A program made the translations under genes and the position numbers. From Deltaproteobacteria bacterium (GTDB lineage: Bacteria; Desulfobacterota; UBA8473): DNA of 48,486 nt. The notes beneath the pieces are model-generated. The model was not told where the DNA came from, did no database searches, and was given only the letters and a program-made list of their open reading frames with translations. The stretch lies in contig JAUXFK010000001.1 of NCBI GenBank assembly GCA_030623035.1, forward strand, positions 1 through 48,486. The letters run 5' to 3'. Shown in pieces: positions 13,297-48,486 of this stretch (positions are counted from its first letter, which is position 1; the number at the start of each line of letters is the position of its first letter).

Positions 13297-13755
13297 ATGC
13301 TTTGCAGGTTGACTGTCTTTTGTATTTCGATTGCTGTCATTTTTAGTATTTGTCTATCCCATGGGATTTCAGGCCGAGAAAGGACCATGGCGATTCTTGA
13401 TCAAATGCTAGAAACAGGTCACTTGACAGGAAAGCATTGGAGGGTAACCGGGATACTGGATGATCGAATCAACATCACCAAGTATCAGCGTACGATAACC
13501 CTTGCCTGTTCAGCATCAAAGGATATACAGGTAGGGGATCGGATTAGCTTTATTGCTAAGATAGACAATACCAACAAACCCTCTGACCCGATATGGTATC
13601 CTGTCCGGATTTACTTTCATGTAAACAGCGCTTTCAAGTATTGGATTTCTGTTCTTTCCGTATTGATCGTATTCATTATGGGGTTTAGATACGTTGGATT
13701 TGATAGAGAATCCTTTGGTTTGATATTGAAAGGGGAGGGGAAGATAGATGCCTGA
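13297..13755 (+). CDS. Hypothetical membrane-anchored protein
   Basis: 152 aa with hydrophobic segments at the N- and C-termini. Overlaps the next ORF by 8 nt, suggesting translational coupling. No family recognised. Confidence 0.4.
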   Translation: MLCRLTVFCISIAVIFSICLSHGISGRERTMAILDQMLETGHLTGKHWRVTGILDDRINITKYQRTITLACSASKDIQVGDRISFIAKIDNTNKPSDPIWYPVRIYFHVNSAFKYWISVLSVLIVFIMGFRYVGFDRESFGLILKGEGKIDA

Positions 13756-23135: not shown

Positions 23136-24638
23136 ATGTTGAATATGAAGAGAGGAATGCGAATCTGTTTAATTTTTGTCATTATTTTTTGTCTGCCTCT
23201 ATCCGGCAAATTATATGCTGCTGCTTATCTTTATATATCAAACAGCGGTGAGGATACTCTAACCGTAATAAGCAATCTTGAAAACGAGGTGATTGATACG
23301 GTTGAGGTCGGTAGGGGGCCGATGGGGTTGGCAGTTACCCCTGAGGGAGATTATGTATATGTGGCGAATAGTATGGATGGAACCGTATCCGTAATTCGCA
23401 CAACGGACAACTCTGTCATTGAAACAGTCGAAGTCGGTGCTTCTCCAATGGGGGTAGTTATCTCCCCAGAGGGAGATTATGTATATGTGGCGAATAGCGC
23501 AGATGGAACCGTATCCGTAATCCGCACAACGGACAACTCTGTCACTGAGACTGTTGAAGTCGGCAATGGCCCATGGGATGTGGCCGTCACTTCTGGTGGC
23601 ATTTATGTATTTGTGACAAATAAAACGGATGGCACAGTGTCTATGATCCGCATTGAAGATAATACCATTGTCAATACGATTGAAGTAGGGAGCAATCCAC
23701 TTGGAATCACAGTCGGTCTGGATGGCGATTATATTTATGTGGCGAATAACTCAGATAATACAGTTTCACTAATCAGTACGACTTACTATACTGTCATAGA
23801 GACGATAGCTGTTGGCAACGGCCCATGGGGGGTGGCTGCAACAAATGACAAAGAATATATTTATGTAGTAAACAACGAGGATAACACAGTGTCGAAGATA
23901 AGGATTTTCGATTATTCTACGACTCTTTTTGCGGTAGGTAACGCACCGGTAGGTCTTGGCAGTTTTTTAGGCGGTCGGTCACCAGAACCCCCCAGTGACC
24001 TTGAGGCAACGGAAAAATCCTATAAAAGGATAGACCTTTCCTGGACTGACAACTCTTCTGATGAATTTGGGTTCAAAATCGAAAGAAAAGCAGGATCAAA
24101 TGGGGAATACATTCGGATAGCGGCTTTAGATGAGAATGTCACCACATATTCTGACACAGGACTCAGTTATTATAGGACCTATTATTATCGTATAACCTCA
24201 TACAATGACGTAGCCGATTCAGATTATACAAACGAAGCATACGCAACTACCGAAGATTACGAGACAGAGTGTTTTTTCGTCACAGTGGCTTACGGTTCAC
24301 CTTTTAACAGACATATCCGAATAATTCGTGGTTTCCGTGACAGGTACTTGATGTCAAACGCACTGGGAAAGGCCTTCGTTGATATCTATTATGCCTTAAG
24401 CCCAAAGGCAGCCCACTTCATCAGCAGGCATGATTCAATGCGTACCTCGCTTCAGTTCGCCCTTATCCCCTTAGTTTGGCTTTGTTGGCTGTCTCTAAAT
24501 ATAAACCAGACATCCACTATTGCATTTATCTTATTGTTGCTTGTACTGTCTTATGCTGCTTTTTTAAAGAATTTGTATCATTTTAAAACTATCAGCAAGC
24601 TTCAACGACGGTCAAATTTTAATGCGTGTAATGTTTGA
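23136..24638 (+). CDS. Secreted YVTN-type beta-propeller repeat protein with Fn3 domain and a C-terminal CF..AYGSP / transmembrane anchor domain
   Basis: Signal peptide MKRGMRICLIFVIIFCLPLSG. About 6 repeats of ~42 aa (YVYVANSxDGTVSVI...VEVG). Fn3-like segment (PSDLEATEK...YYYRITSYN). C-terminal ECFFVTVAYGSP...FRDRYL...YYALSP plus a hydrophobic helix. Confidence 0.8.
   Translation: MLNMKRGMRICLIFVIIFCLPLSGKLYAAAYLYISNSGEDTLTVISNLENEVIDTVEVGRGPMGLAVTPEGDYVYVANSMDGTVSVIRTTDNSVIETVEVGASPMGVVISPEGDYVYVANSADGTVSVIRTTDNSVTETVEVGNGPWDVAVTSGGIYVFVTNKTDGTVSMIRIEDNTIVNTIEVGSNPLGITVGLDGDYIYVANNSDNTVSLISTTYYTVIETIAVGNGPWGVAATNDKEYIYVVNNEDNTVSKIRIFDYSTTLFAVGNAPVGLGSFLGGRSPEPPSDLEATEKSYKRIDLSWTDNSSDEFGFKIERKAGSNGEYIRIAALDENVTTYSDTGLSYYRTYYYRITSYNDVADSDYTNEAYATTEDYETECFFVTVAYGSPFNRHIRIIRGFRDRYLMSNALGKAFVDIYYALSPKAAHFISRHDSMRTSLQFALIPLVWLCWLSLNINQTSTIAFILLLLVLSYAAFLKNLYHFKTISKLQRRSNFNACNV
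23343..23594 (+). repeat. Near-identical tandem duplication, 2 x 126 bp, inside the propeller CDS
   Basis: GAGGGAGATTATGTATATGTGGCGAATAG...ACAACGGACAACTCTGTCA recurs with a 126-nt period (42 aa, one blade) and only a few substitutions. Confidence 0.85.
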
Positions 24639-24690
24639 GCGTCTAACTGAGCGTTAAGAAAGAAGAGGGGGGAAAAGACCCATTTATGGA
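24575..24690 (-). mobile_element. Truncated MITE type B fragment (GTATCATTTTA end plus internal ~80 bp)
   Basis: Begins GTATCATTTTA like the 25346 end of the full copy. 24591..24670 is ~94% identical to 25377..25456. No second terminus is present. Confidence 0.6.
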
Positions 24691-25331: not shown

Positions 25332-25345
25332 CACTTAAATTACCT

Positions 25346-25615
25346 GTATCATTTTAGCGTTATGAAATAGAAGGCTATCATCAAGCTTCAACGACGGTCA
25401 AATTTTAATGCGTGGATTGTCTGAGCGTCTAACTGAGCGTTAAGAAAGAACAGGGGATAAACCCACCTATTATATCTGGAATAGGTCATAATGGAGCTAC
25501 TGAATTGAATAGTTATATACTGTTCTTTCTTTACGCTTACTTGGATGCGAGTTTTACACGGATTAAAATTTGATTGCCGCTTTTTGCAACTCTTTTCAAA
25601 AAGCTAAACTGTTAC
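25346..25615 (-). mobile_element. MITE type B, long form (270 bp) with a perfect 8-bp TSD
   Basis: Termini are GTATCATTTTAGC... and ...GCTAAACTGTTAC (11/13 inverted match). AATTACCT is present at 25338..25345 and 25616..25623. Long imperfect internal palindrome (25384..25456 versus 25520..25590). Confidence 0.8.
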
Positions 25616-25651
25616 AATTACCTTAATTGAGACCCTTTTATTAGAATTCAA

Positions 25652-29433: not shown

Positions 29434-29604
29434 ATATGTCTCTCTGTCATGCCTTTATGAAACAAAACGATTTTTTTGAGATTAAACCGTATAGACCTTC
29501 CATGTCAAGCAAATTTAGCCCTATTAAAAAATGGATCCAATAGAAAAATTTATCCACAATATCAAATTGTTGGTCTTCCCCATCTTGACAAAGCAAAAGA
29601 TAAG

Positions 29605-29753
29605 ATAACTGTTTCGCCAGATAATGATTTGTATGGTCTTTGACGAACATTTTTGAGTTATTTTGTTGAAGATTCAAGGTGACTCAAATCGTGAGGAAAA
29701 GACGATTCAAATCATAAAATCTCGTTAGCTCCTTAAGATGGCTAAACAATCAC
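29605..29753 (+). mobile_element. MITE type A (149 bp) with a perfect 8-bp TSD
   Basis: ATAACTGTTTCGCC...GGCTAAACAATCAC termini. AAGATAAG lies directly on both sides (29597..29604 and 29754..29761). Confidence 0.85.
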
Positions 29754-29804
29754 AAGATAAGCATTTTCAAGTGATTGAGCCCTAATGGAGAGTTTTAAAT
29801 ATTC

Positions 29805-29883
29805 GTAACAGTTTAGCTTTTTGAAATTTGATTGCCGTTGAAGCTTGGCGAGTGCTTTTTGTTTCATAAGGCTAAAATAGTAC
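29805..29883 (+). mobile_element. MITE type B, short deletion derivative (79 bp) with a perfect 8-bp TSD
   Basis: GTAACAGTTTAGCTTTTTGAAA...GGCTAAAATAGTAC. AAATATTC is present at 29797..29804 and 29884..29891. Confidence 0.85.
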
Positions 29884-30220
29884 AAATATTCTTATCGCAA
29901 CTCTAAAACTCCCTCGTGCACTTTCCTCTTTTGTGGAGGGGCACTAACTAATCATGATATCTATGGAAATTTTAATTTGATGGTTAAAAAAGGTTTGCAA
30001 TTTCTGTGTAATTAAGTTATAAGCTAAGCTTGTTAATTATTGGGTTATTGCTCAAATCCTTTTTTGCTTTGCCCAGATAAATTTCTTGATAAATCCATTG
30101 TTCGTTCCAGTCGTTTTCAAAACTCTCTCTGTGGGCTCAAGGAATTGAGATTTATCTAAGAGAAAGTGTTTTGATGATTTTGTATAATAATTTTTGTTTG
30201 GGTAAAATGGCCTTTTATGG

Positions 30221-31336
30221 ATGGATACGAAAAAGTTTAATAATAAGGTAGACCACAATCTGAATTTGCAGGGTGAATTAGGTGTTTTGCGGGAAAAAAT
30301 AGACCAGATCGATACAGAAATCCTCGATTTGCTCAATGAAAGAGCAAAAAAAGCAATCAAAATCGCAAAAACCAAAATCGCAAATAAGATGGAATTTTAT
30401 GCACCAGATAGAGAGCTCAAGATTTATGAGAGACTTGTAAATATAAACAAAGGTCCTTTTCCAGACAGAGCGATTAAGCCTGTCTTCAAAGAGATAATCT
30501 CTGCTTCTTTATCCCTTGAGAAACCTATTCATGTTGCATACTTAGGTCCAAAAGCAACATTTACCCACCTTGCGAGTATCAGTCATTTTGGTCAGTCATC
30601 CAATTTTGTTCAGAAAAGAAATATCCCTGAAATTTTCTCTGAAGTGGAAAGGGACAGGGTCGATTTTGGAGTTGTCCCTATAGAGAATTCGACAGAAGGG
30701 GTGGTCAGCAACACCCTGGACATGTTTATAGAATCAAACCTGAAAATATGCGCAGAAATTTTACTAGAGATATCTCATCACCTCATGTCAAAGACAGGCA
30801 AGATGGAGGACATTGAGAAAGTATACTCCCATCCTCATGCGATCGCCCAATGTAGAAACTGGCTGGATCGTAACCTTCCAAATATACCTATTATCGATGT
30901 AGCAAGCACCGCTTTAGCAGCTAAGAGTGCATCAGATGACCATTCAGTAGCTGCAATTGCCAGCGAGTATGCTGCATCTTGCTATGATTTAAAAATAGTA
31001 AAGAGAAAGACAGAGGATAATATCAACAATTTCACCAGATTTTTAGTGATTGGCAAAAGAGAGCCTGAAAAAAGCGGTAATGATAAAATATCGATTATGT
31101 TTTCCATTAAGGATGAGGTCGGGATTTTATATAGAATGCTTGAACCCTTTGCAAAAAACAATGTGAATCTAACGAAGATTGAATCTAGACCTCTCAAGAA
31201 AAAAGCCTGGGAATATATGTTCTTCTTGGACTTAGAGGGTCACATATCTGATAAAAATGTGAAAAAGGCATTAGAAGAATTGGATAAAAAATCTCTGTTT
31301 TTAAAGGTGTTGGGTTCCTATCCAAGGAGCAATTGA
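30221..31336 (+). CDS. pheA: Bifunctional chorismate mutase / prephenate dehydratase (P-protein)
   Basis: 371 aa. N-terminal CM helix (LREKIDQIDTEILDLLNERA), PDT domain (VAYLGPKATFTH, ENSTEGVV) and a C-terminal ACT domain. Confidence 0.9.
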   Translation: MDTKKFNNKVDHNLNLQGELGVLREKIDQIDTEILDLLNERAKKAIKIAKTKIANKMEFYAPDRELKIYERLVNINKGPFPDRAIKPVFKEIISASLSLEKPIHVAYLGPKATFTHLASISHFGQSSNFVQKRNIPEIFSEVERDRVDFGVVPIENSTEGVVSNTLDMFIESNLKICAEILLEISHHLMSKTGKMEDIEKVYSHPHAIAQCRNWLDRNLPNIPIIDVASTALAAKSASDDHSVAAIASEYAASCYDLKIVKRKTEDNINNFTRFLVIGKREPEKSGNDKISIMFSIKDEVGILYRMLEPFAKNNVNLTKIESRPLKKKAWEYMFFLDLEGHISDKNVKKALEELDKKSLFLKVLGSYPRSN

Positions 31337-45213: not shown

Positions 45214-45285
45214 GTAACAGTTTAGCTTTTTGAAATTTTAGTCACTAAAGCGGCAATCACATGATAACCCATGCAAAACTCGCGA
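45214..45285 (+). mobile_element. MITE type B, left-end fragment
   Basis: GTAACAGTTTAGCTTTTTGAAA...AAAGCGGCAATCA...AAAACTCGC is collinear with the 25615-side ~72 nt of the long copy. No right terminus was found. Confidence 0.55.
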
Positions 45286-46065: not shown

Positions 46066-46086
46066 TCTCCTAAAAGTTTATAATAC

Positions 46087-46160
46087 GTAACAGTTTAGCT
46101 TTTTTAAATTTTAGTTGAAGCTGTTTTGATGCCGTCTATTTCATAAATCTAAAATGATAC
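46087..46160 (+). mobile_element. MITE type B, short derivative (74 bp) with a perfect 8-bp TSD
   Basis: GTAACAGTTTAGCTTTTTTAAA...CTAAAATGATAC. TATAATAC is present at 46079..46086 and 46161..46168. Confidence 0.85.
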
Positions 46161-46184
46161 TATAATACGAATCATCTGTATCTT

Positions 46185-46274
46185 GTAACTGTTTAGCCAG
46201 ATAATGACTTGGATAGTCAAAGACAATTCAAATAATAAAATCTTGAAAGCTTCTTAAGATGGCTAAACAATTAC
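46185..46274 (+). mobile_element. MITE type A (90 bp, internally deleted) with a 7/8 TSD
   Basis: GTAACTGTTTAGCC...GGCTAAACAATTAC (13/14 TIR). Flanks are TGTATCTT and TGTATATT. Confidence 0.8.
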
Positions 46275-47120: not shown

Positions 47121-48347
47121 TTAAAAGAAGTATGCAACAGAACCCGATATAGAGAACCCTGAAACATCGATCAAACTATCGTTTGCCCTTACTCCTCCTA
47201 TGTTTGGCGGGGTATAGTCGAATTCAATACCTCGATATAAAAAGTCAAAGCCGAGCTTGAACCGGGATTTCAGAATATACACGCCACAACCGGTCTCCCA
47301 ACCGAGACCATCGTCAAATTCGCCGGGGATTTCGTCCCAATCGAAGGTTCCGTAAACCGCTCCCCCTTTCAAATAAGGGAAAATCGAGTCCGATACATCG
47401 ATGGTTAATTCCGGGCCTATTGAAAGAAACATTGCATTGATCTCATCTGCGAATGCATATTCAAAGCTGCCGTACATATTAAAGTCCTTAAAAACCCTGA
47501 TGCTAGAGACAAGTGCAGCCTGGGCCGTGTCACCTGTAAACGACCATGTCATGGTTCCGGATACTCGCTCTTCGGTTATTTCGAAGTCACTTGCAGCGCT
47601 TGAAGTAAAAGCACCGGCCTTCAGATACATGGAAAACAAACGATCTTTTTGCAAATCTCGTTGTTTCAAGATGCTTTTTATCGGCGTTTTTTCAACCGGC
47701 GAGATTTCCCCCTTTTCCGCTTCAGTAAGCTCTAGAGTATGTTGTGTTTTTTCGTTATATGCTTTGGCCTCAACTCTTTTATCTAAAGGCAGCAGATCTA
47801 TTTTCTTTTCCCTTTGTTTTTTACCGGCTTTAATCGATAGAGGTTCCTTTCTTTCACGTTCAGCAGAGACTTTGCGTGAATCGGTTTCGGTTTGCAAATA
47901 TTTATCTGTCTCAGTAGTGTCACGAGGGCTTGCTTCGGTTGTTTCTTGCATAGCAATTATGGAATAGTAAGATATAATCTTTTGTTGTTTCAATCTTATT
48001 GCATTTTGTTTTGCTTCTTTTTTCGAGTCAAACCTGCCAATATAAACCCTATACCATTTCCCCTTACCTGCTACGGATTCATACTGATGAAAGGCTTGCA
48101 AACCGCTCTTTTCTAATTTAGACACCTCAGATTCGGCATTTTTGTGATATTTATGCGAACTCACATGAATCGAATAAAAACTCCTGGGTATGTCTGCAGA
48201 AAATATGGAACCGGGGATTACGTGAAGTGTAATAATAATTAACAATACAATTGAGATTCTAAGGATATGTGTGATCTGAAACATGGAAATCAAATTATAG
48301 TTCGTATCCATCCACATATAGTCCTTTTGCAAAACAGGTGTGATCAT
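47121..48347 (-). CDS. SPOR-domain protein fused to a C-terminal beta-barrel-like domain (start uncertain: 48347, 48317 or 48284)
   Basis: Signal-like ILRISIVLLIIITLHVIPGSIFSA. SPOR-like YSIHVSSHKY...WYRVYIGRFDSKKEAKQ. Charged K/E linker. The C-terminus has alternating hydrophobic beta-strand patterns and ends in ...GSVAYFF (terminal Phe, typical of outer-membrane proteins). Confidence 0.7.
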   Translation of the reverse strand: MITPVLQKDYMWMDTNYNLISMFQITHILRISIVLLIIITLHVIPGSIFSADIPRSFYSIHVSSHKYHKNAESEVSKLEKSGLQAFHQYESVAGKGKWYRVYIGRFDSKKEAKQNAIRLKQQKIISYYSIIAMQETTEASPRDTTETDKYLQTETDSRKVSAERERKEPLSIKAGKKQREKKIDLLPLDKRVEAKAYNEKTQHTLELTEAEKGEISPVEKTPIKSILKQRDLQKDRLFSMYLKAGAFTSSAASDFEITEERVSGTMTWSFTGDTAQAALVSSIRVFKDFNMYGSFEYAFADEINAMFLSIGPELTIDVSDSIFPYLKGGAVYGTFDWDEIPGEFDDGLGWETGCGVYILKSRFKLGFDFLYRGIEFDYTPPNIGGVRANDSLIDVSGFSISGSVAYFF

Positions 48348-48365
48348 AATAAGTAACTTTCATTA

Positions 48366-48486
48366 TTTAGTGCCCATCCATAAATGGCCCTTTTGCCCAA
48401 TCTCTGTGTCAGGCTCAGATTTTAATCCTCGAAATATCTCAATATATTCCTGTGGTTAAAATCTTCGCCTTCCTTGACCTTGAACA
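48366..48486 (+). repeat. Dispersed repeat family D, copy 2 (runs into the window edge)
   Basis: Same core as 2547..2595 with one mismatch. Carries an extra ~40 nt before CCTTCCTTGACCTTGAACA. Preceded by GTAACTTTCATTATTTAGTGCC at ~48353. Confidence 0.6.

Follow-up and report, generated by a model that had tools for sequence, protein, structure and literature searches.

The window, by which we mean the whole 48,486-nt stretch that was analysed, is contig C45 of a 2.57-Mb metagenome-assembled genome (G000; 268 contigs, 85% complete, 41.8% GC). It carries intact and truncated copies of a short repeat, type B, along with copies of a second family, type A. For comparison we used G001, a same-genus Thermodesulfobacteriota MAG from a tar biofilm. 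The features of the window discussed below are the following (TSD, target duplication).

25346..25615, minus strand: long type B copy of sublineage B1, 270 bp, with its left end (GTAACAGTTTAGC..) at 25615
~25385-25460 and ~25513-25580: arms of the foldback core of the 270-bp copy
25338-25345 (left) and 25616-25623 (right): TSD AATTACCT of the 270-bp copy
29805..29883, plus strand: short type B copy of sublineage B2, 79 bp; TSD AAATATTC at 29797-29804 and 29884-29891
46087..46160, plus strand: short type B copy of the B3 lineage, 74 bp; TSD TATAATAC at 46079-46086 and 46161-46168
45214..45283, plus strand: solo left end of 70 nt, a truncated type B copy without a partner end
24566..24680, plus strand: truncated B1 copy, consisting of the right end and one core arm, overlapping the 3' end of the ORF at 23136-24638
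29604..29753, plus strand: type A MITE, 150 bp, TSD AAGATAAG; absent from G001
46185..46274, plus strand: type A MITE, 90 bp, TSD TGTATCTT/TGTATATT; absent from G001

Direct reading of the three stretches with intact type B copies bore out the original prediction on their positions and flanks: each copy has a perfect 8-bp target duplication, starts with GTAACAGTTTAGCTTTTT[G/T]AAA and ends with ..TTTCATAA..CTAAAAT[AG][GA]TAC. The 270-bp copy has both termini and also the imperfect internal palindrome that had been described for it, which corresponds to repeat pair I13 and gives a single-stranded DNA fold z-score of -5.5 (-8.7 and -14.1 for the family consensus sequences). This strong folding is found in the long forms and not in the short forms. 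No ORF of at least 60 aa lies inside 25346-25615, and the copy is 87-91% identical to 12 other copies of 268-273 bp. What remains in the two short copies is ~22-25 nt on the left side, the GTTGAAGC segment and ~40 nt on the right side, and both were retrieved through these end segments when the 270-bp copy was searched by BLAST against the whole assembly. An Rfam scan of the 270-bp copy returned only chance matches, to plant miRNA hairpins.

Positions 24589-24670 of the truncated B1 copy are 94% identical to 25375-25461 of the 270-bp copy, and the 500-aa ORF at 23136-24638 takes its final codons, including the stop, from this truncated copy. The 150-bp type A element has termini GTAAYWGTTTAGC, the same as those of type B. 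A further repeat family (..GTGTCCATCCATAAATGGCCCTTTTGCCCAA..) is present at 2535-2620, 30198-30232 and 48301-48486; elsewhere in the genome it often adjoins truncated type A or type B copies.

The type B pattern recurs far more often than chance allows. G000 has about 500 occurrences of the 13-nt end motif and 126 matches to the 22-nt type B end, the latter compared with none for a reversed control. When these ends were paired in inverted orientation, 89 pairs were found at distances of 56-321 bp, all with an 8-bp duplication (at most one mismatch) and 60 of them with a perfect one. Type B-like sequence covers about 245 loci, or 1.4% of G000, and lies at 60 of the 536 contig ends. The duplicated targets are 78% AT and follow the pattern NAWWWWTN, and none of 82 insertion sites falls inside an open frame of at least 200 codons, against 62.5% of random sites. 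The repeats account for many of the contig breaks in G000 and also for altered gene ends.

At the places in G001 that are orthologous to the two short window copies, the sequence runs on without interruption and the target 8-mer is present once (TATAGTAC, corresponding to TATAATAC, and ACATATCC, corresponding to AAATATTC). The same comparison with the joined flanks of 16 short copies found at least 10 of the 16 sites continuous in G001, i.e. empty. The original prediction is supported in that the short copies arose by internal deletion, with only the ends retained, and are true insertions. Type B elements are thus short (62-276 bp, where a MITE has fewer than about 500 bp) and non-coding, have inverted repeats (~22 nt, imperfect, 17/22 matched) and a TSD of fixed 8-bp length, leave empty sites and are dispersed, as is expected of a MITE. 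With the end comparison given below, the three window repeats are confirmed as true copies of a non-coding MITE with IS66-family ends.

The site of the 270-bp copy is different in that its G001 counterpart holds a type C MITE instead (ends AATGGTTATTGAC, 8-bp duplication, ~2 nt off). Type C elements are about 256 bp long, have the same AATGGTTATTGAC.. ends and 8-bp duplications, and were located at the following places.

G000 C106:1624-1881: type C MITE
G000 C53:27615-27871: type C MITE
G000 C75:9969-10225: type C MITE
G001:C250 ~13490-13750 (L045): type C MITE

Where a spacer is occupied in both species, the elements differ, as do their positions and their duplications. Five comparisons show the same intergenic spacer filled by different MITEs a few nucleotides apart, and we conclude that these are independent insertions into the same spacers in two sister species.

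Window 25338-25623 and G001:C250: doubly occupied spacer
G000 C179:6662 and G001:C247: doubly occupied spacer
G000 C108:3107 and G001:C201: doubly occupied spacer
G000 C147 and C212, and G001:C274: doubly occupied spacers

A short copy in a third genome, G002, that looked orthologous to the one on C172 because of the same left 8-mer was rejected since the flanks differ.

A multiple alignment, as had been proposed with the original prediction, was made of 60 intact type B copies together with class consensus sequences. All copies follow one layout, with a left end of ~25-30 nt, a foldback core made of two ~70-nt arms around a ~70-nt loop, and a right end of ~40 nt. There are two main sublineages, B1 and B2, in which the core has opposite orientations, and a minor one, B3. 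The right end of B1 is ..TCTATTTCATAGCGCTAAAATGATAC and its long form, which includes the 270-bp copy of the window, is 268-273 bp; the right end of B2 is ..TCTGTTTCATAAGGCTAAAATAATAC and its long form is 273-276 bp. B3 has three members (on C220, on C108 and the 74-bp window copy, in which its signature reads CTGTTTTGATGCC). The cores of B1 and B2 are reverse complements of each other, with an identity of 75.5% flipped versus 64% direct in the long forms and 85.6% versus 50% in the medium forms. In one B1 copy (C3:12484) only the centre is flipped. Each of the three window copies is thus of a different sublineage, which rules out the 270-bp copy as parent of the two short ones. The idea of a 270-bp master form therefore has to be given up, as the 79-bp copy belongs with a longer form whose core is reversed and the 74-bp copy with B3.

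The copies fall into three size classes, of 268-276, 185-190 and 62-80 bp. That such a series bounds the sequences required in cis holds good, and the natural mini-elements suggest bounds of 22-25 nt for the left end and 41-54 nt for the right end; the series as first described had overlooked the abundant 185-190-bp class. In this medium form (17 B2 and 4 B1 copies) the loop is gone, together with the inner part of one arm. The junction CGCATCT|TTCCCCC, with at most 2 nt of microhomology, is common to all 21 copies, and B1 and B2 carry it in opposite orientation. The short class is more varied, with 13 copies of 79-80 bp (all B2), three of 74 bp (one B2 and two B3), two of 64 bp (B1) and one of 62 bp (B2). 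The 79-80-bp deletion lies within an imperfect direct repeat of 14 nt (GAAATTTTAGTTGC / TAAAATTTGATTGC), placed on either side of the hairpin (z -14), and the 13 copies of this form show four junction variants. The two 74-bp B3 copies likewise have different junctions, GTTG|AAGC and GCTTC|TG. Polymorphisms such as GGC[C/G/T]AG are common to all size classes. The short copies are the most uniform class, with 3.85 differences over 71 nt compared with 5.0 and 6.4 in the other classes. A nearest-neighbour test for their common descent gave no clustering (p = 0.30), on a shared sequence that is too short to be informative.

The original prediction had treated the transposase as unknown. It can now be named with good probability, because the ends match a clade of the IS66 family. 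GTAA-type ends with 8-bp duplications are said to be a hallmark of that family, a description associated with Han et al. in 2001, and the ends of type B begin with GTAA and its TSD is 8 bp. ISDge4 of Deinococcus geothermalis, a member of the ISBst12 group, shows the same combination, with ends GTAACTGCTCAGCA and an 8-bp repeat, CCTCGATG (PMC12898284). More directly, contig C48 of G001 holds a degraded 1182-bp remnant of an IS66 transposase, which is interrupted by stop codons, lacks its N-terminus and has GTAACAGTTTAGT on both sides. A search with its read-through protein found relatives 48-54% identical in other families of the phylum. These intact relatives lie in elements of ~2.0 kb with ends GTAACAGTTTAG(T/C)CC, two of which have perfect 8-bp duplications (GTCAGTCC at L021, CACCCGGG at L023); more distant IS66 relatives have other end sequences. 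The transposase passes both PF03050, with 118 bits, and NCBIfam NF033517, with 221 bits (cut-off 180). A conserved ORF of ~100 aa, with a weak DUF6788 match (25 bits), lies upstream of and overlaps the transposase frame (L021:450-750, and the equivalent place in L016-L023).

Among metagenome copies of this IS, 59 of 80 had both ends. Nearly all of these ends read GTAACAGTTTAGT (93) or GTAACAGTTTAGC (13), and ten copies had perfect 8-bp duplications. The left 30 nt of B2 agree with the left IS end at 26 of 30 positions and with the right IS end at 19 of 30. At its right end, type B has a diverged inverted repeat, which agrees with either IS end at 17-19 of 30. A search of annotated plasmids found as closest IS66 transposases only ones that are 25-29% identical, so that no named IS can be assigned. 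Type A elements presumably use the same transposase as type B, as they have the terminal 13 nt in common.

The genomes that hold the repeats were also searched for their source. A tblastn search with an intact transposase found no cognate transposase in G000, an assembly that is 85% complete and fragmented at repeats. Pairing of ends up to 4 kb apart found no autonomous element there, the largest pair being 321 bp, and no intact copy of the matching IS was found in G000, G001 or G002, though each has dozens of type B copies. The IS66 content of G000 is an unrelated 38-residue C-terminal fragment at a contig end, and this has a different end, GTAACTACCCAGG. It belongs to a second IS66-type end family (GTAACTACCCAGG / GTAACTATTCAGCC) seen at C60:1-392 (L001), in the flanks of C31, C38 and C120 and at C147:7097-7297. 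The C60 instance is the transposase fragment, with an in-frame TAG, and small elements also bear these ends. As this fragment is broken at the C60 contig end, IS copies are under-assembled in G000. The source of type B was either lost, as is often the case with MITEs, or not assembled or binned, and since no intact cognate transposase was found in the three genomes the current mobility of type B is unproven.

This missing transposase is also what would speak for a mover from outside IS66, such as another family that makes 8-bp duplications (ISL3, IS256, IS1595, ISAs1 or hAT-like), with the end likeness a coincidence. The three genomes are those richest in type B, and the type C MITEs of the same genome, with their own ends, make 8-bp duplications too. 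We nevertheless consider such a mover very improbable, given that the terminal 12-13 nt of type B are identical to those of over 100 ends from a single IS66 clade, with the longer agreement on the left, that the end sequence tracks the transposase clade, and that the sister genome holds an IS66 remnant with type B ends. Long palindromic elements that are numerous and intergenic also call to mind REP or REPIN sequences spread by a RAYT (HUH) transposase. This is hardly conceivable for type B, where there are 60 perfect 8-bp TSDs, clean empty sites, GTAA-type ends and short forms without any palindrome; REPINs are not known to make 8-bp target duplications or to have GTAA-type terminal inverted repeats.

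A much more serious objection concerns the short copies. The original prediction took their perfect TSDs to mean that the minimal ends are sufficient for mobilisation. This step does not hold: when a longer insertion is shortened in place, its TSD survives unchanged. The short copies might then never have moved as such, with long or medium insertions losing the hairpin in place by slippage between direct repeats, and the sufficiency of minimal ends would be unsupported. Several of the features described above suit this account: the direct repeat around the strong hairpin, the variety of junctions in both the 79-80-bp class and the 74-bp B3 copies, the polymorphisms found in every size class and the lack of mutual clustering among the short copies. 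On the other side, comparison of 16 short-copy sites with G001 and of 16 G001 long-copy sites with G000 found no shared insertion, and no orthologous site was found at which a long copy in one of the two genomes is matched by a short one with an identical TSD in the other. The B2 copy numbers (13 short, 11-12 long, 17 medium) would also require a very high and very uniform rate of deletion after the species split, and neither the uniformity of the short class nor the existence, in other phyla, of MITEs that have only these ends in common is what one would expect. We regard this account as unlikely, though it carries real weight.

A better guide to mobility than the TSD is a junction shared across many loci, and by this measure the evidence is strong for the 185-190-bp class and less so for the 79-80-bp one. 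The junction of the 185-190-bp form has almost no microhomology, yet it recurs at 21 loci whose duplications differ, so that this form must clearly have spread as such by transposition. The 79-80-bp form, with its 13 copies at different loci and its uniform sequence, may also have spread in this way, but its four junction variants in a direct repeat that flanks a strong hairpin mean that recurrent deletion in place is possible for it. That these ends are common to MITEs with unrelated interiors argues that the interior is dispensable for such ends.

Taken together, our preferred reading is that type B is a non-autonomous MITE family moved in trans by a DDE transposase of the IS66 clade, and that its deletion forms have in part multiplied; we hold this to be likely, and with good confidence. 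The source would be elements of the clade described above, of ~2.0 kb and with a single large ORF and the small DUF6788 ORF upstream of it. Their transposase would recognise the outermost ~22 nt on either side (GTAWYAKTTTAGCYTTWTGAAA) and insert the element into AT-rich intergenic 8-mers (NAWWWWTN), which are then duplicated. The ~200-nt foldback interior would have no part in transposition. As a long hairpin with short direct repeats on its two sides, it could be lost or trimmed again and again, and repeated microhomology or slippage deletion of this kind would give the 185-190-bp and 62-80-bp forms. Recombination may also have inverted the interior or exchanged it between copies. Transposition would afterwards have multiplied the 185-190-bp form at least, and probably the 79-80-bp form too.

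The foldback core raises a further possibility. The arms of type C are homologous to those of the type B core (63-79 nt at 76-78% identity), so the same core lies between two unrelated end pairs. With its occurrence in both orientations, the medium-form junction shared by B1 and B2 and the repeated hits of the same spacers, this could indicate that the ~200-nt core is an exchangeable module and not passive filler, a suggestion that we put forward tentatively and think somewhat doubtful. If true, cores would often be shuffled between MITE backbones by recombination; in addition, either only a narrow set of spacers would be permissive or targeted, or the hairpin would have a role under selection.

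These findings tie an abundant repeat family of an uncultured Thermodesulfobacteriota lineage to a specific and little-studied clade of IS66, a family whose transposition is still poorly understood. Canonical IS66 elements have the three genes tnpA, tnpB and tnpC. Like the matching clade, the single-transposase elements of the ISDge4/ISBst12 type start with GTAAC, have 14-nt ends of the form GTAAC..(T/C)..AGC, make 8-bp duplications and encode a DDE_Tnp_IS66 transposase. Type B differs from them in having no gene, and the matching clade differs in its distance from plasmid IS66 transposases and in its upstream DUF6788 ORF.

The same 22-nt end and 8-bp TSDs also bound MITEs in Brocadia, Loosdrechtia, Desulfobacteraceae and Pseudomonadota MAGs, whose interiors (67-292 bp) are unrelated. 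At G000 C65/L065 and at L082 (Desulfobacteraceae MAG co340_80), for example, a 292-bp MITE and a 67-bp derivative have ends GTAACAGTTTAGCTTTTTGAAATGGATGGC... The Brocadia MITEs are like type B in the 22-nt end, GTAACAGTTTAGCTTTTTGAAA, and in their 8-bp duplications; their GTAAC ends (23-24 bp) are near-perfect inverted repeats around unrelated interiors, whereas the right end of type B is asymmetric and diverged. On the strength of these ends, the matching IS66 clade is also a candidate source of transposase for the same-ended anammox MITEs.

That MITEs derive from insertion sequences, that they have size variants made by internal deletion and that only their ends are required in cis is already established. 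MITEPsy1 is a MITE that was trapped experimentally (PMC3189936). Type B resembles it, and the Correia elements, in being small, non-coding, numerous, intergenic and dependent on a transposase in trans, with target duplications and with inverted repeats that match those of an IS. It departs from both in a parent of the IS66 rather than the IS5-like kind, in a TSD of 8 bp rather than 2-4 bp, and in an interior that is a long foldback, occurs in both orientations and comes in three size classes. The biology of type B is thus ordinary for MITEs, and what is less ordinary is a core that is found in both orientations, the presence of this core between unrelated ends and the repeated hits of the same spacers.
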